NCBI GenBank assembly: GCA_963666485.2
Contig: CAXXUO010000003.1
Coordinates: forward strand, 64,001-128,000
Direction: 5' to 3'
DNA length: 64,000 bases
Source: Syntrophorhabdaceae bacterium
GTDB lineage: Bacteria; Desulfobacterota; Syntrophorhabdia; Syntrophorhabdales; Syntrophorhabdaceae
Shown here in pieces: positions 7,546-30,062 of this stretch; the stretch's first letter is position 1; each line of letters starts with the position of its first letter. The notes beneath the pieces are model-generated. The model made no database searches. It was not told where the DNA came from and saw only the letters and a list, made by a program, of their open reading frames with translations. The position numbers were made by a program, and so were the translations under genes.

Positions 7546-7890
7546 GTTCCAGGTTCCACGTTCCAAGTTCCAGGTTAAAAAAACCGACGCGAAGATTTTC
7601 ATCTGACAGGACACATTGAGAAAATTAAATGAGGTGACCAGCGCCACATTCTGTTGGGCCGGCGTTGTATTGAACTCAGTTTAATCGTCTTCCCTTCGCG
7701 CACTTGCCGTCATCCCGGCCTCCGAGCCGGGACCCAAGGTTTTGTTTTTATTACTATTTGTGGTGTCGAAGTTTTGAAAAGGTTCAAGAAGAAAAACCTT
7801 GGGTCCCGGGTCAAGCCCGGGAAGACGGTGAGAGTGAGGGTGTACCGCTTTTCTTTTTCACTTTTTGCGTTTCGCGTTTTACGTTTTACG
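7546..7890. repeat. Intergenic cassette: GTTCCAN array, inverted type-1 REP pair, TTTTACG array
   Basis: GTTCCAN x4 at 7546-7573; REP 7708-7743 and inverted REP 7793-7827 share the GACCCAAGGTTTT tail; heptamers at 7863-7890. Confidence 0.9.
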
Positions 7891-11786: not shown

Positions 11787-11997
11787 AGTGGCGCAAGAAG
11801 TAGCGGAACTCCCCACATCACTCGTCATCCCATAACTCTCGCCGTCATCCCATAGCTCTCGCCGTCATCCCGGGCTTGACCCGGGACCCAAGGTTTTAAT
11901 ATAATTTTACGCACCAAACACGGCATCTCGCGCACCCGTGTGATCAGATCACCTAGTTATTTCAAATCCACTAATAAAATAGCTTGAGAAAAAAATC

Positions 11998-12303
11998 ATG
12001 GATAAGCACCCATGCGTTTATATTTTGACCAATAAGAAGAACGGCACCTTGTACGTTGGTGTAACCTCGAACCTGGCTAAACGTATATGGCAGCATAAAA
12101 ACCGTTTAATCGATGGTTTCACCAAAGATTACGCTCTTGACATGCTGGTCTGGTTTGAAGTGCACGATGCAATGGAATCGGCAATCCTAAGAGAGAAAAG
12201 GATTAAAAGATGGCGCAGGAACTGGAAGTTGGAACTGGTTAACAAGTTGAATCCCTATTGGCATGATCTATATGATGAGTTGGTTACAGAATCAAAAAAA
12301 TGA
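11998..12303 (+). CDS. Short GIY-YIG nuclease family protein
   Basis: CVYILTNKKNGTLYVGVTSNLAKRIWQHK...AILREKRIKRWRRNWKLELV...NPYWHDL. Confidence 0.92.
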   Translation: MDKHPCVYILTNKKNGTLYVGVTSNLAKRIWQHKNRLIDGFTKDYALDMLVWFEVHDAMESAILREKRIKRWRRNWKLELVNKLNPYWHDLYDELVTESKK

Positions 12304-12338
12304 AAAAAAGCAAAACCTTGGGTCCCGGGTCAAGCCCG

Positions 12339-12642
12339 GGATGACGGCGAGGGCGAAGGATGACGGCGAGGGCGAAGGATGACGGCGAGGGCGAAGGATG
12401 ACGGCGAGGGCGAAGGATGACGGCGAGAGCGAAGGATGACGGCGAGGGCGAAGGATGACGGCGAGGGCGAAGGATGACGGCGAGGGCGAAGGATGACGGC
12501 GAGGGCGAAGGATGACGGGGAGAGCGAAGGATGACGGGGAGGGCGAAGGATGGCGGGGAGAGTGAAGGATGGCGGGGAGAGTGAAGGATGGCGGGGAGAG
12601 TGAAGGATGGCGGGGAGAGTGAAGGATGGCGGGGAGAGTGAA
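12339..12642. repeat. Tandem array, 16 x 19 bp (GGATGACGGCGAGGGCGAA grading to GGATGGCGGGGAGAGTGAA)
   Basis: Units counted at exact 19-nt period; no spacers. Confidence 0.97.
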
Positions 12643-12906
12643 GCGATGATAACGGGTTGGATGGGATGGCGGCGAGAGTTATGGGATGACGGGCAGGTTG
12701 GCTGGGATGACGGATAAAGAAAAAGATGGCAGATAGATAGGGCGGGAATGATGGGCAAAGGATGAAGTTGGAATGCCGGGGAAAAGGCAGAACCTGGATC
12801 CCGGTGTCAAGCACCGGGATGACGAGGGGGGGTCAATTGTAGGGTGGCTAATAATGGAATAAATAAACCGGAGACAATGCAATATCTCCGGTTTTAGAGT
12901 TTTTTC

Positions 12907-12938
12907 AACGTAGAACCTAGAACGTAGAACCTAGAACG
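12907..12938. repeat. Heptamer array AACGTAG/AACCTAG
   Basis: Four alternating units ending about 6 nt from the panD stop. Confidence 0.9.
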
Positions 12939-12943
12939 TTTTT

Positions 12944-13321
12944 TTAATTCACCGCCTGCAGCAGCTGCGTCTTGATCCTGTTCGCCCCGTCCACGTACAC
13001 CTTGGCGGGTTTGAATTTTTCAAGCTCTTTCTCATCAAATGTTGCGTAAGTAGCTATTATGATTATGTCACCCTTGCGTGCTTTGTGCGCGGCGGCGCCG
13101 TTTATACATATCACGCCGGATCCTTTGTCCCCTTTTATCGCGTATGTGGTGAAGCGCTCACCGGATGTGACGTTGTAAATGTCAACCTGCTCATATGGGA
13201 TGATGTTCGCGTTGTCCATGAGATTTGAGTCTATGGTAATGCTTCCCTCGTAGTCAAGGTTGCTGTCGGTTACCGTGGCTCTGTGGATCTTGCCCTTCAT
13301 CATGGTCCTTCTCATTGTCAT
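12944..13321 (-). CDS. panD: Aspartate 1-decarboxylase
   Basis: KIHRATVT...YEGSITID cleavage site; NGAAA. Confidence 0.97.
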
Positions 13322-14163
13322 GCCTCCGTTAAGATTGTGTTATCTATGAGTCTTGTTTTCCCTATGCGGCACGCTATCGCAATGACGGCTTTTTTGCCAA
13401 CTCGCGAGATATCCTCGAGCGTCGTAGCGTCACATATGTCTATATATTCGACGTTAATGCCATCTTCCTTCTGAAGCATGTCATTGACCGTCTTTTTGAT
13501 CGCCCCGGTGTCGTGCTCTCCGGCCTTGAACATTTCCTCGGCTTTTTTTAGCGATGCGCTGATGGCCAGGGCTTTTCTTCTTTCCTCGGCGCTGAGGTAG
13601 GTGTTCCGCGAACTCATCGCAAGGCCGTCGGCTTCGCGGATGGTCGGGTGGGGAACTATTTTCACGTCCTGGTTGAGGTCCCGGACCATGCGTTCAATGA
13701 CGGTGAGCTGCTGGTAATCTTTCTGTCCGAATACTGCGTAGTGCGGCTTGACTATATTGAAGAGCTTCGTGACGACCGTCGCGACCCCGGTGAAATGGCC
13801 GGCCCGGGTCTTGCCGCAGAGGTGGTCTTCAAGCTTTTTGACCTCGACGTACGTGGAGAAGTCTTTTTCGTACATCTGCCCGTCATCGGGGTAGAAGATG
13901 ATGTCCGTATTTTCCTGCTCAAGGAGCTGGGAATCGCGTTCAAAATCGCGGGGATAGCGGGAGAGGTCCTCGCTGGGGCCGAACTGTATCGGGTTGACGA
14001 AGATGCTGACGACGACCACGTCCGAGATCTTCCTCGCGGCCCTGACGAGCGCCAGATGTCCTTCGTGAAGGTAGCCCATCGTCGGGACGAAGCCTATCGT
14101 TTTGCTCTTTCTGAGCTCGTCGGCGGTGCGCTGCATTTCGGAGACGGTTCGTATGATCTTCAT
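13318..14163 (-). CDS. panC: Pantoate--beta-alanine ligase
   Basis: [29 protein letters not shown]. Confidence 0.97.
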
Positions 14164-14164
14164 A

Positions 14165-14959
14165 TTAATGAAATGACTGGCTGTCGTCCGGGAAATCCCC
14201 CGATGCGACGTCGCTTATGTACTCCTTGACCGCGTTGGTTATATCTTCAGTAAGGTTCCTGTACTGTTTGACGAACTTCGGGCGGAAGCTCCCGAGAAGG
14301 CCGAGGACGTCGTGTATGACAAGGACCTGCCCGTCGCAGTCGGGCCCCGCCCCGATGCCTATCGTCGGGATGGTGAGCATCTCGGTTATCTCTTTGGCGA
14401 GTTGTCTTGGCACGCATTCGAGAACGACCATGAATGCCCCGGCCGCCTCGATGGCCCGTGCGTCCGCGATGAGCTTCTCGACATCTTTTCCCTTACCCTG
14501 GACCTTGTACCCGCCCATACGGTGAATGGACTGCGGTGTGAGGCCGATGTGGGCGCACACGGGGATGTCTATATCAACTATTGCTTTTATCGTATCGTGC
14601 ATGTTGACGCCGCCTTCGAGCTTGACAGCCTCGGCGCCGCTTTCTTTGAACATCCTGCCGGCATTGCGTTTTGCCTGTTCAATGCTTTCCTGGTAGGACA
14701 TGAAGGGCATATCTATGATCACGAGGGCTTTTTTAACGCCGCGTGCGACTGCCCGTGTGTGGTGGATCATTTCATCGACCGTGACCGGGATCGTGTTCTG
14801 ATATCCCAGAACGACCGGGCCCAAGGAATCCCCGACGAGGACCGTATCGATCCCCGCATCATCCATTATTTTGGCCGTCGGATGATCGTACGCAGTGAGC
14901 ATGGCGATCTTCCTCTGACCTTTCATGCCCCTGAGTATCGGTACGGTGACTTTACTCAT
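14165..14959 (-). CDS. panB: 3-methyl-2-oxobutanoate hydroxymethyltransferase
   Basis: LTAYD, LVGDS, VKLEGG, HIGLTPQ, GIGAG. Confidence 0.97.
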
Positions 14960-14976
14960 ATGTACAACCTCTAAAA

Positions 14977-15009
14977 TAAAAAAGCTTTCCAGACCATGTC
15001 CAGAAAGCT
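14977..15009 (-). terminator. Intrinsic terminator/attenuator in the panB leader
   Basis: AGCUUUCUGGAC-AUG-GUCUGGAAAGCU stem followed by a U tract, upstream of the panB RBS. Confidence 0.8.
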
Positions 15010-15025
15010 AGCGATTGTCACTTCG

Positions 15026-15069
15026 AGCCTTCCGTCTCGGTCCAGTTTGGATCCAAGCGGCATCCGGCT
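15026..15069 (-). ncRNA. pan RNA motif (cis-regulatory hairpin)
   Basis: CCG-CUUGG-A-UCCA-aac-UGGA-CCGAG-A-CGG hairpin with two bulged A, closed by AGCC/GGCU, upstream of panBCD. Confidence 0.75.
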
Positions 15070-15154
15070 AATATAAAACAACCAATCCAAATAAAAGTCA
15101 ATATTTAATTCTAAAAAGCTAAAACTTCTTTAAGCCGTCAAGATAAGGGCGCTT

Positions 15155-15349
15155 TTACGCACCCTTATTCTTGTATTCATCGTACCTCAGCATCATGATG
15201 AAGGCCTCTTCGTCGTCGAGGAACTCATCATAGCTCAATTCCTTTATAACCTGGCTCGAGCCGCAGTTCGGGCAGAACAGTTCAGGCACTTCGCCGTCCA
15301 GAAAGGAGTATCCGCACAATTTACAGATATATTCGTCAGGTATTCTCAA
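15155..15349 (-). CDS. Small zinc-ribbon/rubredoxin-like protein
   Basis: AGGAGG RBS with TTG start; CKLC...CPNC; acidic tail. Confidence 0.7.
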   Translation of the reverse strand: MRIPDEYICKLCGYSFLDGEVPELFCPNCGSSQVIKELSYDEFLDDEEAFIMMLRYDEYKNKGA

Positions 15350-15419
15350 TGTTGCCTCCTATGCTACACCCACATAATATACTTATAGGGGAAATTTCTC
15401 AATGACAATCTTGGGCCGG

Positions 15420-16073
15420 TCAAAAGAATTCGTTGATGATCATCTGGAAGTTTTTCTGGATCACGTCCCGGCCGCGTATCGCGTCGCCGTGTCCCGGGAG
15501 AAGGTACTCAATGTCGAGGGCCGCGAGCTTGGCGATGCTGCGGGCGAGTTGTTCGATATTGCCGCCCGGCAGGTCGGTCCTGCCGACCCCCATGTAGAAG
15601 AGGGTGTCACCCGATATGAGGAGCTTCTTTTCTTCGCAGTAAAGGCACAGCGACCCCGGGGAATGACCGGGCGTCTCGATGACCTTGAACCGGGTATCGC
15701 CAATCGCCAGGTCGCCCTCGGTGAGGTAAAAAGAATAGGGCTTCCGGGGCAGTGCGCACCCGGTCATGAGGTACAGTTCCTTGCCCCCGTTGTTGCAGAA
15801 GTCGTATTCCGTCCTGCCGATCGCCCGCATCGTTTGTTCATCGAATGCCTCGGCCGCCTCGATGTGGTCGGGATGGGAATGGGTGCCGATGACGAGCTTC
15901 ACCAACTCGATATTCTTGCCGTCACGGGCCATGCCGTTCATGACATTGCCCAGGAAATTCTTGTGGCCCGGGTCGATGAGGGTCGGTACCGGCCCGTCTA
16001 TGAATACTGTGTTGCAGTTGTTGGCCTCATACGATGTCCACGGGTAAAGATAAATATTATCAAGGACTTTCAT
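15420..16073 (-). CDS. MBL-fold metallo-hydrolase
   Basis: THSHPDH, TPGHSPG, SGD, PGHG. Confidence 0.92.
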   Translation of the reverse strand: MKVLDNIYLYPWTSYEANNCNTVFIDGPVPTLIDPGHKNFLGNVMNGMARDGKNIELVKLVIGTHSHPDHIEAAEAFDEQTMRAIGRTEYDFCNNGGKELYLMTGCALPRKPYSFYLTEGDLAIGDTRFKVIETPGHSPGSLCLYCEEKKLLISGDTLFYMGVGRTDLPGGNIEQLARSIAKLAALDIEYLLPGHGDAIRGRDVIQKNFQMIINEFF

Positions 16074-17074
16074 TGTGCCTCCTGTTGAATGAGCAGGGCA
16101 TCGCTGTCAATCTCCCGCATGTCGAACGAAAAGCTCCTGTCGGCCCCGTCATGGATGCCGATCGTTGCGCTGGGCGGTACATCCTTTCCGTAACGGGCGA
16201 GTATCAGGGCCGATGTCAGGAATGTTCCCTCGTCGGGCGTTAAGGCTTTCAAAACGCCGAGCGGTCCCCGGAAGCTTACCGGTTCGAGGCGGATGTAGGG
16301 GTTGCCGGCAAATGCGGCGAGCTGTTCATTTTCGCGCTCGTTGCGCGCGACGATCAGTTTCGCGGTCGGCGATACCCTGAAATGGCGCCCGATGGTCAGA
16401 AGTTCGATGTCTTTCGTCGTATAGTCAGGGTCGGTCGCCATAAGGTTCTTCAGTTTTATCGAGAAAATGGGGTCCGTGAGAAGGCAGCCGCCCCCCGGCA
16501 GTTCGAACTCCTTGAGCTTATATTTCTCAACGAGTTCATATTGCACGTGCCGTCCCCGTCCCGCGTGGTTAAGCAGCTTCTCCCGGTCCAGGATCCCTTC
16601 CTGTTCGGGTATACTCGGCGGGAAAAGCTTCGCCGAGAGCGGCCGGACGATCAAGCCCTTCAATTCGCTGCGCTTCTCGATCAGTTCGATCGTATTGCGC
16701 CGCTGGGACATCGGTCTTTGCCCCAAAACCTCGCCCGTGACCACGAAGGACGCGCCGACATCCGGCATCATCTCCCGTGTCAGGTTCAGCATATATATCC
16801 TGCAGTCGATGCACGGGTTCATGTTTTTTCCATACCCGTACCGGGGATTCTTCACGATCTCGATGTAATCCTCCCCCTTGTCCCGGGAGATCATCTCGAT
16901 ACCGAGTTCTTTCGCCGTCTGTACAGCCCTGTGGCCGCGCAGTTTGTCCCGTTTGCTCGCAAACATAGACGAAAAATGAAGCCCGATAACCTCGATCCCC
17001 TGTTCGAGGATCAATTTCGTAGCAACCGCGGAATCGAGTCCGCCGGAAATGAGGGAGATAGCTTTCTTGTTCAT
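16070..17074 (-). CDS. PP-loop tRNA thiouridylase-like protein (ThiI/MnmA-related)
   Basis: SGGLDS PP-loop, NPCIDC, GEVLGQRPMSQ, GGCLLT. Confidence 0.8.
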   Translation of the reverse strand: MNKKAISLISGGLDSAVATKLILEQGIEVIGLHFSSMFASKRDKLRGHRAVQTAKELGIEMISRDKGEDYIEIVKNPRYGYGKNMNPCIDCRIYMLNLTREMMPDVGASFVVTGEVLGQRPMSQRRNTIELIEKRSELKGLIVRPLSAKLFPPSIPEQEGILDREKLLNHAGRGRHVQYELVEKYKLKEFELPGGGCLLTDPIFSIKLKNLMATDPDYTTKDIELLTIGRHFRVSPTAKLIVARNERENEQLAAFAGNPYIRLEPVSFRGPLGVLKALTPDEGTFLTSALILARYGKDVPPSATIGIHDGADRSFSFDMREIDSDALLIQQEAQ

Positions 17075-17081
17075 TTTAAAT

Positions 17082-17301
17082 CAGTAAGGAGTGAGGAGTA
17101 AGGAGTAAGGAGAAAAAGACCAACGATAGGTCGTCATCCCGGTTTACCGGGATCCAGTGTCTTTTCTTTTCACTTTCAACATAGGAAATAAAGTAAAGAC
17201 GCTGGATTCCGGCGCAAAAGCCGCCGGAATGACGGGGTGAGTTGTTCCTATGCTCTAATCCTCATTATTTCTTCAAACTCCTTACTCCTTACTCCTTACT
17301 G
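17082..17301. repeat. Heptamer-armed cassette (AGTAAGG/CCTTACT arms) enclosing an inverted type-2 REP pair
   Basis: Arms 17082-17112 and 17277-17301; REPs 17132-17164 and 17195-17234 with TCCAG(T/C)GTCTTT tails. Confidence 0.93.
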
Positions 17302-17304
17302 TCT

Positions 17305-18516
17305 TTACTGCATCTCCTCCGGTGTTCTCTCGTCAAGCGTTACGAGACTGATCCCTGAGTCAGGGCCGGGCAGGGGTTCAACGGGACTGGTGAGCGTGAA
17401 GCTTCCGCTCTCTATCCAGCCCTTCAGGGCGGAGGCGATCTCGCGGGCCTTCGCATAACTCGAGATGGGGAAGGTAGGTACTTCCTTGCCTTTGACGGTT
17501 ATCTTGCCTGACTTCAATTGCGCATACGTGACCTCACACAGGCTGCCCGGTATGCGCTGGGGATAATCGTGGGAATAATCAACCACCTGGGCGTAAAAAT
17601 CTTCATCCGCCCGGGAGGTGAAAAATGCCATCTCTTCGTCGAGGATGGGAATGGGGATGCCGAGACCGACGAACATGGTCGCACCGTACCCGAGGAAGCT
17701 GGCTCCCCGCAGGTAGTCCCCGGACATCTTCTTGGCGTCTCCGATAACGGCCAGGGTCCCGGCGCCGCCCTTCGGCAGCCCTTCGGGAGTGCGCGGGCCG
17801 CACGGGCTGTGCTGCGTTCCCTGCCAGGCCACATACCCGATGCCGCCTCCCAGGAATATCCGCGTGCCGATCCCGATCGTCCGGTACTTGGGGTCTTTAA
17901 GGAGCGGCGACAACTGTCCCGCGCTCGAGTAGTTCGCGCTTCCCAGGTTTGGCTTGATCACGCCCATGTATGTATGAATGACACGGTTGGAAACGTTCAC
18001 CCCGACATTGTAGTTCTGGTAGCTGTTCCGGGGGCTGTATATATATGCCTCGTTGACCGTTTCCTTGTTGATGTACGTCTCTATCTTCTTCCGCGGGTAG
18101 CAGTCCGTCCCGTACGCGGTCGCTTCGAGCCTTATGGCCTTGCCGCTGACAAATTCCTCGATGACGTGTCCTCCGCCGTACTTGAAGGTACCGGGATAGA
18201 CCGTGTTCCGCGGGTCGGTGTCCGGCATTGCCGTCGCGCCTATGTAGATATCGACGGCTGCGACGCCGGTATATGCAGGGACATCATTGAGATAGCACCT
18301 GCCGCCCCCGATCTTGATCCTCGGTTTGGAGTGGCCTAAGTTCATGAACATACCGCTTGAGCACATGGGCCCGAACGTCCCTGTCGTCACGACGTCGATC
18401 TGCTGGGCCGCCTTCTTCGTCCCGTTCTTCTTCACGACATCGATCATCTCTTCAGCTGTGACGACAACAACCTTGCCCTTCTTAATCTTCTCATTGATCT
18501 CAGCGATAGTCTTCAA
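17305..18516 (-). CDS. Homocysteine biosynthesis protein (DUF39, aspartate-semialdehyde sulfurtransferase family)
   Basis: DVVTTGTFGPMCSSG, GTDCYP, RNSYQNY; start reassigned to TTG 18516 after GGAGG. Confidence 0.88.
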   Translation of the reverse strand: MKTIAEINEKIKKGKVVVVTAEEMIDVVKKNGTKKAAQQIDVVTTGTFGPMCSSGMFMNLGHSKPRIKIGGGRCYLNDVPAYTGVAAVDIYIGATAMPDTDPRNTVYPGTFKYGGGHVIEEFVSGKAIRLEATAYGTDCYPRKKIETYINKETVNEAYIYSPRNSYQNYNVGVNVSNRVIHTYMGVIKPNLGSANYSSAGQLSPLLKDPKYRTIGIGTRIFLGGGIGYVAWQGTQHSPCGPRTPEGLPKGGAGTLAVIGDAKKMSGDYLRGASFLGYGATMFVGLGIPIPILDEEMAFFTSRADEDFYAQVVDYSHDYPQRIPGSLCEVTYAQLKSGKITVKGKEVPTFPISSYAKAREIASALKGWIESGSFTLTSPVEPLPGPDSGISLVTLDERTPEEMQ

Positions 18517-18607
18517 CTTTTCCTCCGGATGGCTTTTAAGACTAATTACGGTGCGATAGTATACACTAAAACGCGGCGAAAAAAAATTAACTTGGATAAT
18601 GATAAAT

Positions 18608-18730
18608 CGTAAAACGCAAGACGCAAGACGTGAGATGTTAAGGATAGTTCCCGGTTCTGAGTCGGATAGGAGTAATCGCGACACAGGAAAGGAGTCTTTC
18701 ACTTCTTGCGTCTTGCGTTTTACGGTCTTT
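18608..18730. repeat. Heptamer-armed cassette, 21-bp perfect IR
   Basis: CGTAAAACGCAAGACGCAAGA 18608-18628 / 18704-18724; 18701-18730 is identical to 40446-40475. Confidence 0.93.
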
Positions 18731-19415
18731 AGTCGATTGTCACGTTAAACTTTATCTCCGCCTCGGAGCGGCGGCTGTATATGGGGTTCAAAGGTTGGTT
18801 TTGATCCAGGATGATATCGATCCGTTCGTCGACGAGGGATGCGGGCTCGATGTGGTCGTATTTATCGTGGATGATGGTCACGCCGGCTAAATCTGCGAGG
18901 TACTTTTCCGCGATGCGCAGGCCTGTACCGAAACAGACGCAGGGGGTTTTGATGATGGCGGGGATCTGATCCGGTTTTACGGCCATGTAGTCAGTTTCCC
19001 GCAGGAGCTTTCCCCCGGATACGTGGTAGAGGGCAAGGAATACCTCCGATTTCTTGGCGTCAATGAGGGGGCACAGGTACGACCCTTCCCGGTCGATCAG
19101 GGGGAAGGCGAGGGCGTCGAGGGTAGGGATGCCGCGTATCGGGGTCCCGATCGCGGCGCGGATCCCCTTGCAGAATGAAAGGCCGACGCGTATCCCGGTG
19201 AATGACCCCGGGCCGAGGGTGACCCGGAGCTCGGTTATGTCCTTGAGGGTTGTTCCGTTGGCAGCGAGAATTCCTTCGATATTTTCCGGCAATATCTGGG
19301 AGGGTGAGCGCAATTCCTTTATACGCCTCTCATCTGCGGGCCCGTCCGGGCCTGCGAGGGCGATGTTCAGGAGATCCATCGAATTGTCGATGGCGAGTAT
19401 GTGCCTATTTGCCAT
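18729..19415 (-). CDS. tsaB: tRNA threonylcarbamoyladenosine biosynthesis protein TsaB
   Basis: ILAIDNS, GPGSFTGIRVG, IDAKKSEVF; start at ATG 19415. Confidence 0.93.
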   Translation of the reverse strand: MANRHILAIDNSMDLLNIALAGPDGPADERRIKELRSPSQILPENIEGILAANGTTLKDITELRVTLGPGSFTGIRVGLSFCKGIRAAIGTPIRGIPTLDALAFPLIDREGSYLCPLIDAKKSEVFLALYHVSGGKLLRETDYMAVKPDQIPAIIKTPCVCFGTGLRIAEKYLADLAGVTIIHDKYDHIEPASLVDERIDIILDQNQPLNPIYSRRSEAEIKFNVTID

Positions 19416-21644: not shown

Positions 21645-21648
21645 CGTG

Positions 21649-22443
21649 TCATCGCGTCCATAAAATGCAGGAATAGAGAAACGGGGCCGTAAAGATGAAG
21701 CTGTCGATACGGTCCAGCATGCCGCCGTGTCCGGGGATGAGGCCGGACGAGTCCTTTATCTTGAAAACCCGTTTGCAGGCGGACTCCATGAGGTCTCCCG
21801 CCTGGCCCAGGATGCCGGCCGCTATCCCGATGCCAATCGCGGCACCCAGGTCGAAGCCGAGCCATGTGTGGAACGCCCCAATAATAACAACGGAGCCAAG
21901 AGCGGAGCCGGCGAGGCCCTCGACCGTTTTTTTGGGGCTTATCTGGGGGGCGAGCCGGTGTTTCCCGAAAGTTTTCCCGATGAAATAGGCAAAGGTGTCG
22001 CTTGCCCATATAGAAAGGAGAAGTATGAACGGGAAGAGGGTGTTCTCCTTCTTGAGCAGGTACAGGTAAAAGAACGGGACGAGAACGAACATATTGCCGA
22101 AAAGTATGACTGCCGCCTGCAGCGTTATCTCGCGATTGGCCGCGTCGACAGGGGTTTTCCTGTCGAAGGTTTTTATAAGGATCATCACAACGATGGAGGC
22201 CATGGCCCAGAGGGGATAGTACTGGTAGTGCCCCTTATAAAGAGGGATGGCCCCGGCAATGACGAGGACTGCCACGAGGACCTTCATCGGTACATCCGCC
22301 AGGGCAGCCGCTTCGTTGACGGCAATGATGCCGACTATGAGAAGGAGAATGAGAAGCCAGTCAGCCGGCAGGAAGTAAAAGAGAAGGGCAACGACCGGAG
22401 CCAGGCACATGCCCGTAATGACCCGTTTCTTCAGTTCTCCCAA
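21649..22443 (-). CDS. cdsA: Phosphatidate cytidylyltransferase
   Basis: SPKKTVEG, KDSSGLIPGHGGMLDRIDS. Confidence 0.96.
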   Translation of the reverse strand: MGELKKRVITGMCLAPVVALLFYFLPADWLLILLLIVGIIAVNEAAALADVPMKVLVAVLVIAGAIPLYKGHYQYYPLWAMASIVVMILIKTFDRKTPVDAANREITLQAAVILFGNMFVLVPFFYLYLLKKENTLFPFILLLSIWASDTFAYFIGKTFGKHRLAPQISPKKTVEGLAGSALGSVVIIGAFHTWLGFDLGAAIGIGIAAGILGQAGDLMESACKRVFKIKDSSGLIPGHGGMLDRIDSFIFTAPFLYSCILWTR

Positions 22444-23166
22444 TTAAAATTCCTTTATATTTCCGAACCTTCGCTCGCGCTTTGCAAATTCTTTCAAGGC
22501 ATCGAGGAATGCCTCTTTACGAAAGTCCGGCCAGAGAATGTCCGTGACGTAGATCTCTGTATACGCGATCTGCCAGAGGAGGAAATTGGATACCCGCATC
22601 TCGCCGCTCGTGCGTATGAGAAGATCGGGATCGGGTATGTCCGGGGCGTAAAGATATTTCTGCAAAGTCCGTTCATCTATGCGTTTGATGCGCCCGTTCT
22701 TTACGTCTTCCGATATCAACTGTACGGCGTGGACGATCTCCTTGCGGCCGCTGTAGCTCAGTGCGATGGTCAGGACCACGTTGTTGTTGCGCGACGTTTC
22801 CTTGATAACATGATCAAACTGGGCCTGCAAAGCCTTCGAGAAATCTTTCTTTTCCCCGATGATGTTGAAACGGACCCCGTTTTTCATCATAAAAGGGAGT
22901 TCGTTCTCGAGATAGAGGCCGAGGAGGTACATGAGGGTCTTGACCTCTTCTTTCGGGCGGGACCAGTTTTCCTTGGAGAATGCATACAGGGTGAGGTAAG
23001 GGATGCCGAATTCGGCGCACGCTTCGGTGATGTCCCGTACGGAATCGATCCCTACCCTGTGACCTTCAGCCCTTTTGAGTTTCTGTTTTTTCGCCCACCT
23101 CCCGTTTCCATCCATAATGATGGCGACATGGGTGGGCAGTCTGTCGGGAACAGTTTTTTTCATCAA
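22444..23166 (-). CDS. uppS: Undecaprenyl diphosphate synthase
   Basis: IMDGNGRWA, FSKENWSRP, RTSGEMRVSNFLLWQ. Confidence 0.97.
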   Translation of the reverse strand: MMKKTVPDRLPTHVAIIMDGNGRWAKKQKLKRAEGHRVGIDSVRDITEACAEFGIPYLTLYAFSKENWSRPKEEVKTLMYLLGLYLENELPFMMKNGVRFNIIGEKKDFSKALQAQFDHVIKETSRNNNVVLTIALSYSGRKEIVHAVQLISEDVKNGRIKRIDERTLQKYLYAPDIPDPDLLIRTSGEMRVSNFLLWQIAYTEIYVTDILWPDFRKEAFLDALKEFAKRERRFGNIKEF

Positions 23167-23173
23167 TTGCCGC

Positions 23174-23731
23174 TTATATAGAAAGGATCTCTTTTTCTTT
23201 TTCGGAAAAAGATTTTTCTGCCATCTCTATATACTTATCGGTCATTTTCTGGACATCATCCTGTTTCTTCTTGAGGTCGTCCTGGGAGATGGCCTTGTCT
23301 TTTTCCAGTTTTTTCAGCTTTTCGTTAATGTCCCGCCTGACGTTTCTCATGGCAACACGGGTGCCCTCGAGCATCTTGCTCCCGAGTTTCGTCAGTTCCT
23401 TGCGTCTCTCTTCGGTAAGCTTGGGAAAGGAAAGGCGTATCTGTTTCCCGTCGTTCATGGGGTTCACGCCGAGGTCCGATTTCTGAATGGCCTTCTCGAT
23501 CTCGCCGATCACGGTGTTGTCCCACGGCTGTATCGTGAGCGTCCGTGAATCCGGGGCGCCGATGGTGGCCACCTGGTTCAAGGGGGTAGGTTGTTTGTAA
23601 TAATCTATCTTGATATCTTCGAGCAGGGAGACCGACGCAACACCGGTGCGGAGCTTGGAGAAATCCTTTTTCAGAGCGGAAAGGGATTTCTTCAGTTTAT
23701 CTTCGAGTTCGTTCATAACATCGGTGCTCAT
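23174..23731 (-). CDS. frr: Ribosome recycling factor
   Basis: LRTG, IQPWD, LTEERRKEL; synteny. Confidence 0.97.
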   Translation of the reverse strand: MSTDVMNELEDKLKKSLSALKKDFSKLRTGVASVSLLEDIKIDYYKQPTPLNQVATIGAPDSRTLTIQPWDNTVIGEIEKAIQKSDLGVNPMNDGKQIRLSFPKLTEERRKELTKLGSKMLEGTRVAMRNVRRDINEKLKKLEKDKAISQDDLKKKQDDVQKMTDKYIEMAEKSFSEKEKEILSI

Positions 23732-23735
23732 ACGG

Positions 23736-24443
23736 CTACCTCCTCACTATTGTACCTATGGTCTCACCGAGGACTGCTTTTTTAAGATTTTCCCGTACGC
23801 GAATATTGAATACGGCGATCGGGATGTTGTTCTCTTTACAGAGAGTAATGGCAGTAAGGTCCATAACCTGGAGGTCTCTGGCTATCACTTCGCCGTAGGT
23901 GATCTCCGGGTAGAAAATGGCGTCATTGTGGACCTCGGGGTCTTTGTCATACACACCGTCGACCTTGGTCGCCTTCATGACGATGTCCGCCTTCGTTTCG
24001 ACGGCCCTGAGTGCCGCGGCCGTGTCCGTCGTAAAATACGGGTTTCCCGTGCCGCACGCGAAGATGACTATCGTGCCGCCGCTTAAATGACCGATCGCCT
24101 TTGCATGATTGTACGGTTCGGCGATCTTTTCCAGGTTAAGCGACGTCTGTACAACGGCAGGCGCCCCGATCTTGTTCAGCGTGTCCGCAAGAACGAGCGC
24201 GTTTATCACGGTGGCGACCATACCGATATAATCGCCGGTCACCCTGTCGACGCCTTCTTTTTCGCCCTTTTTCCCCCGGTATATATTGCCGCCGCCGAGG
24301 ACGATACCGACCTCGACACCAAGGTTGCGGATCCCGCGGATCTCCTGTGCGATCTCGTAAACGGTGGCATGGTCGATACCGTGCCCGGCGCTGCCCTGGA
24401 GGACCTCGCCACTCAATTTGAGGAGAATCCTCTTGTATTTCAT
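23736..24443 (-). CDS. pyrH: UMP kinase
   Basis: LLKLSGE, GGGNIYRG, FTTDTAAALRA. Confidence 0.97.
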   Translation of the reverse strand: MKYKRILLKLSGEVLQGSAGHGIDHATVYEIAQEIRGIRNLGVEVGIVLGGGNIYRGKKGEKEGVDRVTGDYIGMVATVINALVLADTLNKIGAPAVVQTSLNLEKIAEPYNHAKAIGHLSGGTIVIFACGTGNPYFTTDTAAALRAVETKADIVMKATKVDGVYDKDPEVHNDAIFYPEITYGEVIARDLQVMDLTAITLCKENNIPIAVFNIRVRENLKKAVLGETIGTIVRR

Positions 24444-24444
24444 C

Positions 24445-25050
24445 CTAGTCCTGAAGCGTCTCGCCCAGCTGGAACCTTACGAAACGGTTGATGACTATCT
24501 TCTCGCCCGTCTTCACGAGGAGCTCTTCAAGAAGGTCCTTGACGGTAAGATCGGGATTCTTGATGAAGGTCTGCTCGACGAGGCATACTTCCTGGTAGAA
24601 TTTTTCCAGTTTGCCTTCCGCGATCTTCTCGATGATCTTTTCCGGCTTGCCGGATTCAAGGGCCTGGTTCCTGTAAATGGCCTTTTCCCTTTCGATATGT
24701 TCCGCGGGTATGTCTTCGCGCTTGACATACAGCGGGTTCGCCGCCGTTATCTGCATAGCGACGTCTTTTACGAAGTTCTGAAACCCGTCCGTTTTCGCGA
24801 CGAAATCGGTCTCGCAGTTGATCTCGACCATTGCGCCGACCTTGCCGCCCGTGTGTATGTATGCCGAAATCGACCCTTCCGACGCCACGCGGCCCATTCT
24901 TTTCGCCATCTTGGCAAGGCCCTTCTCGCGAAGGAAGTCGACTGCCTTTTCCATATCCCCGTTCGTATGTTTCAAGGCCTCTTTACAATCCATGAGGCCG
25001 ACGCCGGTCTTTTCACGTAATTTTTTTACCGTATCAGCAGTGATATCCAT
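24445..25050 (-). CDS. tsf: Elongation factor Ts (short form)
   Basis: LREKTGVGLMDCK, EINCETDFVA. Confidence 0.97.
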   Translation of the reverse strand: MDITADTVKKLREKTGVGLMDCKEALKHTNGDMEKAVDFLREKGLAKMAKRMGRVASEGSISAYIHTGGKVGAMVEINCETDFVAKTDGFQNFVKDVAMQITAANPLYVKREDIPAEHIEREKAIYRNQALESGKPEKIIEKIAEGKLEKFYQEVCLVEQTFIKNPDLTVKDLLEELLVKTGEKIVINRFVRFQLGETLQD

Positions 25051-25070
25051 GATAATTCCTCCTGTAGCTG

Positions 25071-25859
25071 TTATGCTTCGTACTCGTCGTATTTTTCTTC
25101 TTCCAGTACGCTTTCATCGACAAAGGGCTTCAGATCTTCAGCCGGCCCTTCGTCCTTGGCCTGAAATTCCTCGACATACAGGGCTTTTCCTTCCATGACC
25201 GCATCTGCGATCCTGGCCGTGATGAGCTTGATCGCACGGATGGCGTCGTCATTACCCGGGATGACAAGGTCAATGTCATCGGGGTCACAGTTCGTATCGA
25301 CGATGCCGATCGTGGGAATGCCGAGCTTCTTCGCCTCGTTGACGGCGATGTATTCTTTCTTGGGATCAACGACATAGATCGCTCCGGGGAGCCTTTCCAT
25401 ACCCTTGATGCCGCCGATGTTCTTCTCGAGTTTCTCGATCTCTTTTTCGATGCCGATCGCTTCTTTTTTCGGGAGCACTTTATAAATGTCGCCTTGCTTC
25501 AATTCTTCGTACTTCCGCAGGCGATCGATGCTCTTTTCGATGGTCTGGAAGTTTGTCATCGTCCCGCCGAGCCACCTGTTGTTGACGTAAAAGGCCCCGC
25601 AGCGGCCCGCCTCTTCACGGATGGCTTCCTGCGCCTGTTTCTTGGTCCCGACGAACAGGATGTACTCATTGCGGGATGCCACTTCCTTCACGAAATTGTA
25701 CGCTTCCTTGAACATCTTGAGCGTCTTCTGAAGGTCGATGATGTAGATGCCGTTGCGGGCGCCGAAAATGTAGGGTTTCATCTTCGGGTTCCATCTCTTG
25801 GTCTGGTGACCGAAGTGAACGCCAGCTTCCAGCAATTGTTTGATGGTGAGATTAGACAT
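25071..25859 (-). CDS. rpsB: 30S ribosomal protein S2
   Basis: [27 protein letters not shown]. Confidence 0.98.
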
Positions 25860-25869
25860 GTATCCTCCT

Positions 25870-25945
25870 GGTTTTTATCCTCCGCCTTTCGCACTTTACA
25901 GCCAGGCAGTTTCCTGCACCCCGGCAATAATTGAAAGGCGTGCGA
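25870..25945 (-). promoter_or_regulatory. Probable rpsB (S2) autoregulatory leader structure
   Basis: CGCCUUUC/GAAAGGCG stem, internal GGGGU and GCAG-GAAA-CUGC hairpin directly upstream of the RBS. Confidence 0.6.
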
Positions 25946-26016
25946 ATTTAATGAGTTTCTAAAATATCATATAATTACAGATGTTTCAATAAAAAATAGG
26001 CAGAAAAGGGCATTGT

Positions 26017-26217
26017 CGTTCTACGTTCTACGTTCTACGTTCTACGGTAAAAATAGATACTTGTATAGCTATGGAGACTGGTATGTGGCAAGTCAAATTC
26101 CGTCATCCCGATATAGATTTTTCATAGTCGACCTGAGTTTGCCGCCCTGTTACTTGTCGTTAACGTAGAACGTAGAACGTCTTTTCCCGTTTCCCGTCTT
26201 GCGTCTTGCCTTTTACG
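26017..26217. repeat. Heptamer-armed cassette with a double right arm
   Basis: CGTTCTA x4 (26017-26046) pairs with 26163-26179; second in-phase array TTTCCCG/TCTTGCG/TTTTACG at 26183-26217; half REP CGTCATCCCG at 26101. Confidence 0.9.
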
Positions 26218-27769
26218 GACTATCGCAGTACGGTGCTATGTCGCGGACGATGGCCTGGAGGTATTTCTTGCCGGCGAGTTCAAGGGAGTTCAGACTGATC
26301 TCAGTGTCGAAGTCGGTCCCGTCGAGGCGTCTGTGCGTCCAGCGGAAGAACCGGCCTGCGCCGTCGAGTGCGTTGTTCATGAGCTTCAGCGCCTTCTCGC
26401 GGGAGTCGGTGCCGTCGGGCTGGAGCGGCGGAGAGAGCTCAAAAGGTGATTTTCCGAGTATCTCTTCTTTCGTGCCACCGAACATCTCGAGCGCCCTTCG
26501 GTTGCAGTCTATGAACGAATAGCCGTCCACGAGGAAGATTGCGTCAATGGCGTTGTCAAAGATCGCATGGAACCTCATCTCGCTGTCTCTGAGCGCGTCA
26601 CCCGCCAGGCGGCGGTCCGTGATGTCCCGGATATACGCCAGGGTCAGCTGTTCACCGCGGAAAGTTATGCCTGTGGCGGAAACCTCAATGTAGACGACAC
26701 TGCCGTCCTTGCGTATGCCCTTTGCCTCGTATTTATCGGGGACATCCTCCCCGTTTTGTCTTTTTTGATTTATCAGCCGGACCCTCTCGAAATCGTCGGG
26801 ATGGATCGTTACCTGGTGCGTTTTGCCTGTGATCTCATCCGGCGAATCGTATCCAAAGATCTGGCAGAAGCGCTGGTTGACGTACAGATGGACATTTCCC
26901 CGCACTATGGCGACCCCGTCGTTCGAATTCTCGATCGCGGTCCGGTACCTTTCTTCGGATTCCCTGAGCTTTTCCTCGGCCTCTTTTTGCTCGGTGACGT
27001 CCCTGACCGATTGAATGACCCCTGTCATCCTGCCGTCGATATCGTATATCGGGCTTGCCTTGGCCCAGATATACGTGAGTTTCCCCCGGATCGTCAGGGG
27101 CTCTATGGGTTCGGCGACCAGCCGGTCCATTTCCTTGGTGATAAAGGAATATCTTTTCTCGGCGTCCCTGTCGGGCCGCAGGACAAAGTCAGCGAGCAGC
27201 GGCTGCCGCCGGCCGTAGAACGGTATCGAGTATTCCCGGTCGGCCTTGCCGAGTATTTTGACCGCTTTTATGCCGGTTAATTCCTCCATGGCCTTGTTCC
27301 ATGCAATGACCCGGCCCTCCGTATCGATCGCGAAAGTTGCATCGGGAAGGAAGTTGATGATGTCCATGAGGCGGCGTTCCGAATCGACCAGAGCGTCCTT
27401 GATCTTTTTCTGCTCCGTGATGTCCTGTATCACCGTCAGGATGTTTCTTTCCCCGCCGTAGGAATGCTTTATAATGCTGATGACCGCGTGAAAAACGCGG
27501 CCGTCCTTGCGTTTCAGATCGACCATGTAATCCCTGAGCGCGTCCTTGTTCCTGACATGCTCGAGCATGAGCTTCCTGTCCCCGGGGGTTGCATAGAACG
27601 CCTCGACATTGAGCGTCGCCATTTCTTTCCGCGTATAGCCGGTAATCCGTTGAAGCATCGAGTTGTATGCGATGATCGTGCCATCGAGGGTGGTAATGCA
27701 TATCCCAACGGGGATATTTTCGAAGATCGTGCGATAGCGGTCTTCTTTTATGGGATCGTTCTCGGTCAT
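26213..27769 (-). CDS. Multi-PAS/PAC sensor protein without output domain (possibly truncated)
   Basis: Four PAS-PAC repeats ending QDIT/RDVT/RDIT/RDI; stop lies inside the heptamer arm. Confidence 0.8.
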   Translation of the reverse strand: MTENDPIKEDRYRTIFENIPVGICITTLDGTIIAYNSMLQRITGYTRKEMATLNVEAFYATPGDRKLMLEHVRNKDALRDYMVDLKRKDGRVFHAVISIIKHSYGGERNILTVIQDITEQKKIKDALVDSERRLMDIINFLPDATFAIDTEGRVIAWNKAMEELTGIKAVKILGKADREYSIPFYGRRQPLLADFVLRPDRDAEKRYSFITKEMDRLVAEPIEPLTIRGKLTYIWAKASPIYDIDGRMTGVIQSVRDVTEQKEAEEKLRESEERYRTAIENSNDGVAIVRGNVHLYVNQRFCQIFGYDSPDEITGKTHQVTIHPDDFERVRLINQKRQNGEDVPDKYEAKGIRKDGSVVYIEVSATGITFRGEQLTLAYIRDITDRRLAGDALRDSEMRFHAIFDNAIDAIFLVDGYSFIDCNRRALEMFGGTKEEILGKSPFELSPPLQPDGTDSREKALKLMNNALDGAGRFFRWTHRRLDGTDFDTEISLNSLELAGKKYLQAIVRDIAPYCDSP

Positions 27770-27910
27770 AAAATACTTATATCACTACTATAGCACTATT
27801 TATCTGTTGATTCAGCCATGAAATTATCGGTGGACCGCATAGAGCAGGTTACCTTGAAATTACGGGACATTATATGGTATGTTGACGGAAAAATAAACAG
27901 GAGGACCTTT

Positions 27911-28039
27911 ATGCCGTCTCTGTCCAAGAAAACCGAATTGAAGAGAAAGAGAAAGAAAGCTGCCCAGAACCCCAGGAGAAAGAAGGTGCAGTCGAAGGCC
28001 TCCACCCCGGCATTTCCCGTACACGTCGATAAGGAATGA
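27911..28039 (+). CDS. Small basic protein (42 aa)
   Basis: AGGAGG RBS, ATG 27911, K/R-rich, ATGA overlap with the radical SAM gene. Confidence 0.6.
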   Translation: MPSLSKKTELKRKRKKAAQNPRRKKVQSKASTPAFPVHVDKE

Positions 28040-29193
28040 GTGAACGCCCCCTGAGATACGAGATAGGGCCGATACGGCCGCCGAACGAAGCGTACAGCCT
28101 TCTCGTCAGGTTCACGAGAAACTGTACATGGAATAAATGTCTTTTTTGCCAGACCTATAAAGGGAAGCGTTTCGAGAAACGGTCCCTGCCAGAGATCAAA
28201 TCTGATATAGATACGATCAAGGCGATCCAGGACGACATCAAGCAGCTGTCCTGGAAAAAAGGCTTCGGCGGAAAGATCACGGACGCCCTGGTCGAAGGCG
28301 TGTTCGACAGCCACATCATTAACGAAGGCTATAAGTCCGTGGCTGTGTGGATGTATTTCGGGTGCAGGAATGTTTTCATCCAGGATGCAAATTCCCTCGC
28401 AATGAAGCCCGATGTCTTTATCGAATCGTTGAAATATCTCAAAGAGGCTTTCCCCACGATCGATCGCGTCACGAGTTATGCCAGGGCGCGCACCATAGCC
28501 CGGAGCGTCTCCCCGGAAAACCTGAAAAAAATGAAGGAGGCCGGTCTCACCCGGCTTCACGTCGGCCTTGAATCGGGAAACGAGGAACTCTTACAGTATA
28601 TGAACAAGGGTGCGACACGGGACGATCACGTACTCTGCGGCAAAAAGGTCAAGGAAGCTGGCATTGAATTATCGGAATACGTCGTTCTCGGTCTGGGTGG
28701 AAGAAAATGGTGGAAACAGCACGCGCTCGACACCGCGGGCCTTCTCAACACGATCGACCCCGATTTCATACGGTTCCGGACGCTCAAGGTGCTCAGGACC
28801 ATGCCGCTCTATCAAAAACTGGAAGACAAGGATTTTCTTCTCCCCGACGAAGAGGACATTCTCAGGGAGGAACGCCTCCTCATTGAAAACCTCACCGATA
28901 TAACAAGCTACGTAAAAAGCGATCACATACTCAACCTGCTCGAGGAGATCGACGGCAGGCTGCCTTCCGACAAACAGAGGTTTCTCGCCACCATAGACCG
29001 CTATTTCAGCCTGTCCGAGGAGCAAAGGCTCATATTCAGGTTCGGCAGGCGGTCCGGTATCTACCGTAAGCTCGATGAACTGAACGACGACCTTACATCC
29101 TTCCGCATAAAGAAATCAATACGGGAAATGGAAGAGAAGGAGCCGGGAAGCGTGGAGAAGACGATCTCGCTGCTGCTCGAGAACTACATCTAA
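28036..29193 (+). CDS. Radical SAM protein
   Basis: CTWNKCLFC (CxxxCxxC); GPIRPPNEA; GLESG. Confidence 0.92.
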   Translation: MSERPLRYEIGPIRPPNEAYSLLVRFTRNCTWNKCLFCQTYKGKRFEKRSLPEIKSDIDTIKAIQDDIKQLSWKKGFGGKITDALVEGVFDSHIINEGYKSVAVWMYFGCRNVFIQDANSLAMKPDVFIESLKYLKEAFPTIDRVTSYARARTIARSVSPENLKKMKEAGLTRLHVGLESGNEELLQYMNKGATRDDHVLCGKKVKEAGIELSEYVVLGLGGRKWWKQHALDTAGLLNTIDPDFIRFRTLKVLRTMPLYQKLEDKDFLLPDEEDILREERLLIENLTDITSYVKSDHILNLLEEIDGRLPSDKQRFLATIDRYFSLSEEQRLIFRFGRRSGIYRKLDELNDDLTSFRIKKSIREMEEKEPGSVEKTISLLLENYI

Positions 29194-29205
29194 AGATCAA
29201 TAAAT

Positions 29206-30062
29206 TCGTCATTCCGGCTTGCCGGAATCCAGTGTCTTTTCTTTTAAAACCGACATTACGGAGACACCGAAATGGCGAAGCAACCCTGTGTCTATATCCT
29301 CGCCAGTAAGAGAAATGGAACCCTTTATACCGGAGTAACCTCTAATCTAAGAAAGCGTATATGGGAACATAAGAATGATCAGATCGAAGGATTTACCAGG
29401 AAATATAAGGTCCATATCCTGGTATGGTACGAGATCCACGAGACAATGGAATCGGCGATTACCAAGGAAAAAGGAATCAAGAACTCGGGACGGCAAATGA
29501 AAATAGACCTGATAGAGGCATTCAATCCATACTGGAATGATCTCTATTTGGGTATCATCTGAAGTTTGAGTGTTAATTTATTATGAAAGAAAGAACAAAA
29601 GACACTGGATTCCGGCAAGCCGGAATGACGATTGGTGTATTCGTGGAAAGTATTTTCCCAAAGTGTTGAAAGTTGAACCCTTCCTACCGCCGTCATTCCG
29701 CCGGCTTTTGCGGCGGAATCCAGTGTCTTTAAGGTTTTTAGTAACCGGTCGGTAAAGACGTGTTAGCACAAAGAAAGAACAAAAGACACTGGATTCCGGC
29801 AAGCCGGAATGACGACTGATGGCCGGTAGATATTTGCTATCACTAAGAAAGAACAAAAGACACTGGATTCGGGAATGACGACTGGTGTATCCATGGAAAG
29901 TATTTTCCCAAAGCGTTGAAGGTTGAACCATTCCTACCACCGTCATTCCGCCGGCTTTTGCGGCGGAATCCAGTGTCTTTAAGGTTTTTAGTAAACGGCC
30001 GGTAAATGTGTGCTAACACAAAGAAAGGACAAACATCGGATTCCGGCAAGCTGGAATCACGG
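29206..30062. mobile_element. REP-flanked GIY-YIG element 2 followed by a BIME-like REP mosaic
   Basis: 35-bp perfect IR 29206-29240/29597-29631; further REPs near 29691, 29780, 29857, 29941, 30038; about 250-bp tandem duplication. Mobility is inferred. Confidence 0.7.
29272..29562 (+). CDS. Short GIY-YIG nuclease family protein (paralog of 11998-12303)
   Basis: CVYILASKRNGTLYTGVTSNLRKRIWEHK...NPYWNDL. Confidence 0.92.
   Translation: MAKQPCVYILASKRNGTLYTGVTSNLRKRIWEHKNDQIEGFTRKYKVHILVWYEIHETMESAITKEKGIKNSGRQMKIDLIEAFNPYWNDLYLGII

Follow-up and report, generated by a model that had tools for sequence, protein, structure and literature searches.

Two putative Ssn-type GIY-YIG nuclease genes, each between inverted CGTC-tagged hairpins of its own subtype, in a Syntrophorhabdaceae genome

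The window analysed here is a stretch of 64,000 nucleotides from a Syntrophorhabdaceae bacterium (assembly GCA_963666485.2, contig CAXXUO010000003.1, positions 64,001 to 128,000). It carries two small GIY-YIG genes, ssn1 and ssn2, each enclosed by an inverted pair of CGTC-tagged hairpins, and each pair belongs to its own subtype, type 1 at ssn1 and type 2 at ssn2, as the original prediction from the sequence had described. The flanking hairpins were located by inverted-repeat and tagged-hairpin searches and by DNA folding.

11863..11897, plus strand: left hairpin of ssn1, type 1 (CGTCA-TCCCGGG-CTTGA-CCCGGGA-CCCAAGGTTTT)
11998..12303, plus strand: ssn1, gene for a 101-aa single-domain GIY-YIG protein, putatively Ssn-type (PF01541)
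12312..12346, minus strand: right hairpin of ssn1, type 1, inverted
29207..29240, plus strand: left hairpin of ssn2, type 2 (CGTC-ATTCCGGC-TT-GCCGGAAT-CCAGTGTCTTTT)
29272..29562, plus strand: ssn2, gene for a 96-aa single-domain GIY-YIG protein, putatively Ssn-type (PF01541)
29597..29630, minus strand: right hairpin of ssn2, type 2, inverted

The Pfam GIY-YIG domain PF01541 was the only domain above the cut-off in either product, covering residues 5-78 with E values of 4.4e-16 (101 aa) and 3.7e-17 (96 aa), and the two proteins are 58% identical. In an alignment that includes both, Tyr8, Tyr19, Arg29, His33, Glu66 and Asn85 are invariant across 10 aligned relatives. Three of these residues, Y8, Y19 and E66, lie at a constant two-residue offset from Y6, Y17 and E64 of Neisseria meningitidis SsnA, where mutations abolished cutting (PMC11893778), and from this offset we infer that they are equivalent. 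A search of PDB sequences with Ssn1 found no solved relative, its sole matches, to WD40 proteins, being spurious; in NCBIfam the GIY-YIG-containing families that came up were all sub-threshold, and none supplied a specific name.

At both loci the CGTC tags point outward and the tails inward. The inverted arms are 94% complementary at ssn1 (11850-11897 and 12312-12359, with a hairpin unit proper of 35 nt) and 97% complementary at ssn2 (29206-29243 and 29594-29631, unit proper 34 nt). All four flanking sequences folded into 7-bp DNA hairpins with z values from −1.4 to −2.0, which are modest given their short length.

The arrangement has a published counterpart. According to the main text of Chenal et al. 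(2025, Nat Commun 16:2388, PMC11893778), the Ssn family consists of site-specific single-stranded-DNA nucleases that bind a class of hairpins, NTS/SRM, having the tag CGTCAT and the tail CCAG, and that cut just 5′ of the hairpin. The Neisseria and Wolbachia enzymes bound the hairpin only as single-stranded DNA and cut it a few nucleotides upstream, the cut of the Neisseria enzyme probably lying at about position −3. The activity described there is single-strand cutting and not transposition. The original prediction that CGTC-class hairpins have a minimal GIY-YIG enzyme as their cognate partner is supported, and its suggestion that this link might be new is not, because the same paper already contains the link, the repeat-gene-repeat layout and the analogy with IS200/IS605-RAYT/REP systems; the main contribution here is thus one more genome with a system already known. 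The present units share with the published one (SsnA, cd10448) the single GIY-YIG domain of about 95-100 aa with its conserved Tyr/Tyr/Glu, the CGTCAT tag 5′ and CCAG-type tail 3′ of the hairpin, the inverted repeat-gene-repeat order, and hundreds of copies per genome, some of which are exactly the Neisseria NTS consensus. They differ in that three intact paralogues and a fourth, frameshifted one occur together here, every one with a hairpin subtype to itself, and in that the host is an anaerobe from a phylum other than that of Neisseria. Another difference concerns the published degenerate SRM motif, HGTCWYN(0-2)YYVSBRHN(0-5)WNVSBRGN(0-2)RNCYNB, which matched both flanks of the third intact paralogue (contig C1, about 77105-77395) but had no match beside the frameshifted copy, ssn1 or ssn2. 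Both window subtypes escape it because of the 2-nt loop (TT) and one tail base (tail CCCAAGG); the ssn1 and ssn2 hairpins otherwise have the tag, palindrome core and tail of the class.

The assignment to the Ssn type fits the domain, the residue offset and the hairpin class. At a probability of roughly 0.57, we take ssn1 and ssn2 to be Ssn-type genes lying inside inverted hairpins of their own subtype, whose products are predicted to bind the hairpin as single-stranded DNA and to cut just 5′ of the tag. That the nuclease also has a role in spreading the repeats is something we only infer.

The window contains further hairpins of the class, including the three gene-less pairs and the single copy that had been predicted.

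301..402, no strand assigned: gene-less doublet, its right copy (375-402, minus strand) being the exact published Neisseria NTS consensus
7708..7827, no strand assigned: gene-less doublet with type-1-like tails, its right copy having the tag variant CGTCTT (repeat and hairpin search)
12794..12824, minus strand: single hairpin of another subtype (ATCCCGGTG/CTTGA), fitting the published SRM motif (inverted-repeat search)
17132..17234, no strand assigned: gene-less doublet with type-2-like tails (repeat and hairpin search)
29691..29814, no strand assigned: gene-less inverted doublet with two different end subtypes (ATTCCGCCG/GCTTTTG and type 2; hairpin and pair search)
29941..30061, no strand assigned: second doublet, its right hairpin degenerate (repeat and hairpin search)

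At least eight copies similar to the 29691..29814 doublet (75-80% identity) occur elsewhere in the genome, and the doublet that follows it belongs to a tandem duplication of 250 bp (29622-29783 versus 29872-30033, 91%). Genome-wide, there are about 325 perfect hairpins with a CGTCA tag, and the exact Neisseria NTS consensus is found at 13 places in the genome and one in the window. A pattern of tag, stem and tail gave 273 matches compared with 0 for the reversed pattern, and the SRM motif gave 141 compared with 19-26 in five Markov-1 simulated genomes; these controls rule out chance or low complexity as the source of the repeats. Of the 41 genomes compared, this one has the most copies.

The predicted resemblance to RAYT/REPIN systems was borne out by the spacing of the hairpins. 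Among 174 neighbouring pairs no more than 3 kb apart, 103 have their tags outward, and 91 of these 103 are doublets spaced 79-200 bp; eight tag-outward pairs are spaced by more than 200 bp. Of the genome's five short GIY-YIG genes, four lie between tag-outward pairs. A single-copy gene between inverted hairpins, a conserved 5′ tetranucleotide tag, and gene-less inverted doublets scattered through intergenic DNA are all features of REP/REPIN-RAYT systems. Here, however, the tag is CGTC rather than GTAG, and the gene encodes a hydrolytic GIY-YIG enzyme rather than an HUH Y1 (IS200/IS605-related) transposase. The RAYT domain PF01797, the presence of which between the same repeats would have spoken against the predicted partnership, had no match at E≤0.1 in this genome of 99% completeness. 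The ssn units contain no transposase domain of the kind expected in a classical insertion sequence. We considered whether the gene-less doublets arose from gene units by internal deletion and rejected this: similarity to the gene units ends 50-58 bp from the terminus and coding remnants are absent, so the doublets are not recent products of deletion.

On the outer side of the ssn1 hairpins lie tandem arrays in which part of the hairpin is repeated.

11823..11862, plus strand: two 20-nt tandem 'half-hairpin' units (CGTCATCC plus spacer), directly 5′ of the left ssn1 hairpin
12347..12700, minus strand: tandem array of 19-nt units, 16 register copies, each with the tag CGTCATCC (GGATGACG on the plus strand)

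The two upstream units pair as an inverted repeat with 12661-12691. Within the downstream array the units beside the hairpin are homogeneous and those farther out are diverged. Arrays of this kind, with units of 19-21 nt that combine the tag with the first bases of the stem and a spacer particular to the locus, accompany 14 of the 325 hairpins and are one-sided, lying on the 5′ (cut) side. Those beside the frameshifted paralogue use the CGTCTT tag variant of that unit, and 22 such array runs were found in 93 Ssn loci of other genomes. They appear to be undescribed in the main text of PMC11893778, since the word 'tandem' occurs 0 times there.

The prediction of hairpin enrichment around homologues was also upheld. 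Of 12 strong homologues from related genomes, 10 have one hairpin or more and 6 have hairpins on both sides, as against 0 of 10 for weak, non-Ssn GIY-YIG matches. Among the best 80 loci from other phyla, hairpins were present on both sides in 46, on one side in 23 and on neither in 11; hairpins at the other-phyla loci numbered 132 in 35.4 kb close to the gene and 73 in 160 kb farther off. The left and right stems are the same in 26 of the 46 loci, whereas shuffling gave 5.2 on average (maximum 12 in 2000 shuffles). Neisseria was absent among these best 80 loci.

The comparison of empty and filled sites, which had also been proposed, yielded a partial answer. Where ssn2 would be expected, the congener G007 has a gap of 49 bp; at the ssn1 locus, G003 has a gap of 112 bp whose sole feature is a terminator-like hairpin; in G011 the neighbouring gene at the ssn1 locus is 90% identical and the Ssn beside it only 66%. 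G007 has a unit 77% identical to the ssn2 unit at a different locus, downstream of a gene that, from the look of its C-terminal translation, may encode UvrA, and at that position the present genome (G000) has only a gene-less doublet. Both window loci are thus empty in some congeners, but the flanks of the empty sites (G007, G002 and G003) are only about 80% identical to those of filled ones, too diverged for exact junctions, target sites or the direction of gain or loss to be read, and no target duplications were recovered from this comparison. In a quick tree of 96 columns, the three intact paralogues were not grouped and ssn2 paired with the G007 copy (SH-aLRT 91), in a topology where most forks are unsupported and the starred branches are compatible with a single origin of the paralogues.

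One explanation for the distribution of the hairpins is that another enzyme, an IS110-family recombinase or an unrecognised transposase, moves them and that Ssn merely recognises them. IS110 elements target repeated palindromes. An IS110-family element of 1218 bp (PF01548 and PF02371) occurs in the genome as four complete copies and a fragment, all of them abutting a hairpin, and two of the eight widely spaced tag-outward pairs enclose it, so that a transposase flanked by the same repeats, which the original prediction had named as evidence against itself, does formally exist. The four copies, however, are inserted at one fixed position in the hairpin tail (AAAACCTTG, the element, then GATCCCGG...); in two of the four, the 220 bp displayed on the opposite side contain no partner hairpin, and in one the adjoining hairpin is of a different subtype. 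The element thus interrupts tails rather than being bracketed by hairpins, for which reason we regard the hairpin as a landing site of IS110 and not as its end, and IS110 neither as the mobiliser of the hairpins nor as their partner gene. With the RAYT domain missing from the genome as well, we consider movement by another enzyme very improbable.

The mechanism originally proposed was true RAYT-like transposition, in which Ssn would excise and reinsert single-stranded units bounded by hairpins. GIY-YIG enzymes hydrolyse DNA and do so without the covalent intermediate by which HUH transposases rejoin strands, so that strand transfer of the transposase type is unlikely. The layout of a gene between inverted repeats and the predominance of compact tag-outward doublets would suit such transposition, as would the fact that the enzyme class acts on single-stranded hairpins with a 5′ tag (PMC11893778). 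The same inverted layout, however, leaves one cleavable (forward) hairpin per strand, and a strand would therefore not be cut at both ends, unlike in IS200/IS605; neither target duplications nor exact junctions were recovered from the diverged flanks. We think that this mechanism is very improbable. Alternatively, Ssn might have a domesticated host function only, such as restriction of single-stranded DNA or control of recombination, with the hairpins kept by selection, perhaps also for a 3′-end or terminator-like role between convergent genes, and the nuclease having no part in their spread. Modulation of transformation in Neisseria is the only biological role demonstrated for any Ssn, and mobility is not among the demonstrated ones (main text of PMC11893778, which also cites dRS3 in Neisseria as the target of a phage recombinase). 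No later literature on Ssn mobility was found beyond that paper, the supplements of which may list this lineage or its subtypes. At both window units the neighbouring genes converge, purSL/panD at one and a radical-SAM gene/cobA-hemD at the other, as might be expected of a domesticated function, and hairpins persist in congeners in which an Ssn-type gene was not found with this query (45 in G009, of 97% completeness, 33 in G008, 26 in G019 and 58 in G034), so that copy number is not strictly dependent on a resident gene. Against this stand a hairpin copy number that ranges from 1 to 273 within one genus (20 genomes, tag, stem and tail pattern), the empty orthologous sites, the same type of unit at different loci in G000 and G007, homologues in other phyla whose similarity (55-65%) equals that seen within the genus, and the frameshift in one paralogue, which together resemble the turnover of a selfish element. 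Domestication as the whole explanation seems to us rather unlikely.

We tentatively favour the view that the gene and its hairpins form a selfish or semi-domesticated element. Host repair or copying that follows cutting by Ssn, in a homing or template-switch style, would let the hairpins and gene units multiply and turn over. A bolder possibility, distinctly short of an even chance, is that Ssn units spread themselves without a transposase. Repeated cutting of single-stranded DNA 5′ of a hairpin, followed by host copying or repair, could give rise to new hairpin copies; gene units might be swapped between hairpin-bearing sites; and each of the coexisting paralogues would maintain its own hairpin subtype. 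Such a genome may serve as a natural experiment, having Ssn paralogues with distinct hairpin subtypes side by side, the top copy numbers of the 41 genomes, empty sites in congeners and arrays on the cut side. Under either view, these one-sided half-hairpin arrays could be scars of repeated cut-and-repair.

Upstream of the tag there is also a G-poor stretch, about 13 nt long. On the self-spreading reading it may mark either where the element really ends on its outer side or where these orthologues cut. The outer edges of the arrays and of a 100-bp tandem repeat fall at this stretch.

The original prediction placed two short GIY-YIG genes inside inverted pairs of CGTC-tagged hairpins, with further hairpins away from any such gene, and all of these features were found:

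11998-12303, ssn1 ORF, 101 aa
11863-11897 and 12312-12346, hairpins flanking ssn1, CGTCA-TCCCGGG-CTTGA-CCCGGGA-CCCAAGGTTTT
29272-29562, ssn2 ORF, 96 aa
29207-29240 and 29597-29630, hairpins flanking ssn2, CGTC-ATTCCGGC-TT-GCCGGAAT-CCAGTGTCTTTT
7708/7827, 17132/17234 and 301/402, gene-less hairpin pairs
ending at 12824, single hairpin copy

Both proteins, which are 58% identical, match the Pfam GIY-YIG domain (PF01541) over residues 5-78, and the domain search showed no further domain in either. The gene ssn1 lies between purSL and panD, and ssn2 between a radical-SAM gene and cobA/hemD. Around each ORF the CGTC tags point outward and the tails inward; the extended arms are 94% (ssn1) and 97% (ssn2) complementary, and a 7-bp DNA hairpin fold is predicted for all four flanking repeats.

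The proposed link between a GIY-YIG nuclease and CGTC hairpins proved correct but not new, since it had been published (Chenal et al. 2025, PMC11893778); its novelty is therefore low. In that paper, the Neisseria meningitidis protein SsnA is a 94-aa single-domain GIY-YIG protein (cd10448) that binds its hairpin repeat, NTS, in ssDNA form only, cleaving a few nucleotides upstream. NTS is defined there as CGTCATTCCCGCGMAVGCGGGAATCYRG, extending dRS3. Motifs are reported nearby in 71% of homologues and on both sides in 42%, the NTS-ssnA-NTS arrangement is called "identical to" insertion sequences, and the analogy to IS200/IS605-RAYT/REP is already drawn. We file the window units as putative members of this Ssn/SRM system, with SsnA compared by its published description, because the hairpins share the tag, palindrome core and CCAG-type tail of the published repeats, because exact copies of the Neisseria consensus occur (13 genome-wide), and because the catalytic Tyr/Tyr/Glu residues do not vary among 10 aligned relatives. 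The one exact copy in the window lies at 375-402 (minus strand). The published degenerate motif misses the hairpins flanking ssn1 and ssn2 but matches those of a third paralogue.

The window corresponds to C3:64001-128000 of a 3.77-Mb genome that is 99% complete. Genome-wide there are 325 perfect CGTCA-tagged hairpins, of at least six or seven stem/loop/tail subtypes. The tag, stem and tail pattern gave 273 matches in the whole genome versus 0 for a reversed control, and the published SRM motif 141 versus 19-26 in five simulated genomes. Tags point outward in 103 of the 174 pairs of neighbouring hairpins lying within 3 kb, and because 91 of these 103 are spaced 79-200 bp we regard the 91 as REPIN/MITE-like doublets. 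The two ends of a doublet often differ in subtype (same subtype in only 22 of 95). Four of the five short GIY-YIG genes in the genome lie between hairpins of their own subtype; the fifth belongs to a distant type and lacks hairpins. Besides ssn1 and ssn2, the bracketed genes are:

C1 ~77105-77395, third ssn paralogue, intact, hairpin loop GAAG
C3:61759-62061 (unit C3:61625-62099), Ssn copy ~2 kb upstream of the window, one frameshift after GTLYVGV

Both hairpins of the frameshifted copy carry a CGTCTT tag variant (22 copies in the genome). No RAYT (PF01797) was found in the 99%-complete genome; the original prediction had named a RAYT flanked by the same repeats as counting against it.

The predicted enrichment of hairpins on both sides of homologues was also borne out. 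Across 40 related genomes, a tagged hairpin lies within 700 bp at 10 of 12 strong-homologue loci, with a tag-outward pair at 6; tagged hairpins were found at none of 10 weak, non-Ssn GIY-YIG loci of related genomes. In a wider set of 80 loci from Pseudomonadota, Chloroflexota, Planctomycetota, Thermodesulfobacteriota and others, hairpins flank the gene on both sides in 46, on one side in 23 and on neither in 11, and their density is 132 in 35.4 kb near the gene versus 73 in 160 kb further off. The left and right stems are the same in 26 of the 46 two-sided loci, versus 5.2 expected from shuffling.

Strict dependence of the repeat on the gene is another matter. Congeners without an Ssn-type gene by this query (G009, G008, G019, G034) carry 26-58 hairpins; the median count in the genus is 28 in genomes that have the gene (n=8) and 16 in those that do not (n=11), a descriptive comparison of related genomes; and doublets overlap gene units only over the terminal 50-58 bp. 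All three observations count against such dependence. Judging from published orthologues, Ssn most likely binds its own hairpin in single-stranded DNA, cutting on the 5' side of the tag. The units may be selfish or semi-domesticated elements that would spread via host repair or copying. One could instead envision RAYT-like cut-and-paste by Ssn, which is unlikely because GIY-YIG enzymes hydrolyse DNA and each strand of a unit offers just one cleavable hairpin.

Of the eight tag-outward pairs with a spacing >200 bp, two enclose an IS110-family element, which was considered as an alternative mover. The genome holds one fragment and four full copies (1218 bp, PF01548 and PF02371), all four outside the window:

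C8:113526-114743
C3:257721-258938
C2:600276-601493
C5:4914-6130

The idea that the hairpin forms an end of this element was rejected. The element interrupts the tail of Ssn-type hairpins at a fixed point, a partner hairpin within 220 bp on the other side is absent in two of the four copies, and the abutting hairpin in one copy is of a different subtype. The hairpin is therefore the landing site of the IS110-family element and not its end.

Tandem arrays with a 19-21-nt period adjoin 14 of the 325 hairpins, immediately 5' of the tag; each unit contains the tag, the first bases of the stem and a locus-specific spacer. In the window they occur at:

12347-12700, half-hairpin array
11823-11862, two inverted units

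The 20-nt arrays beside the frameshifted paralogue bear its own CGTCTT variant. Beyond this genome, 93 Ssn loci from several phyla contain 22 runs of similar arrays (periods 17-26 nt); the word "tandem" is absent from the main text of PMC11893778. Across all 325 hairpins there is a G-poor, C-rich stretch at −13 to −1 from CGTC (G frequency 0.04-0.15). Its position matches the outer edge of the arrays and, at the third paralogue, the edge of a 100-bp tandem repeat present three times. That the G-poor stretch ends where the arrays end suggests that the element reaches ~13 nt beyond the tag. The arrays themselves are possibly repair scars on the cut side. Each tandem copy of this triple repeat (C1:77350-77650) combines the final ~45 bp of the third ssn, its right hairpin and a further 11 nt past the tag.

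Within the genus, 20 genomes have between 1 and 273 copies of the pattern, the present genome being highest. The original prediction looked to empty and filled sites in relatives; empty sites were found, and the comparison gave no readable exact insertion junctions. The ssn2 locus is a 49-bp gap in G007, and the ssn1 locus in G003 is a 112-bp gap with a terminator-like hairpin only. A 77%-identical unit with the ssn2 hairpin type lies elsewhere in G007, downstream of a gene that we take, by eye from its C-terminal translation, to resemble UvrA; at that site the present genome carries just a gene-less doublet. At the purSL-panD locus of G011 (C86), an Ssn with a different hairpin subtype is only 66% identical, versus 90% for the neighbouring PurL segment, which points to either unit replacement or very fast divergence. 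Homologues from other phyla show the degree of similarity (55-65%) that is seen inside the genus. By sequence comparison, the copy-number range, empty loci, unit at another locus, G011 divergence and cross-phylum similarity argue for probable turnover of the units. So does a quick tree of poor resolution, in which the three intact paralogues did not group and ssn2 paired with the G007 copy.

Short tandem arrays of 7-nt units (GTTCAAA, GGAGTAA, CGCAAGA, CGTTCTA and others) were seen just after the stop codons on either side of intergenic gaps between convergent genes, as inverted pairs that often enclose hairpin doublets:

219-274/480-535
11759-11791 and 12901-12946
17082-17115/17268-17301
40140-40170/40444-40474
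52509-52550/52570-52611

Complementarity within a pair reaches 100% over 31 nt, and similar arrays are present in the relatives G011 and G002.
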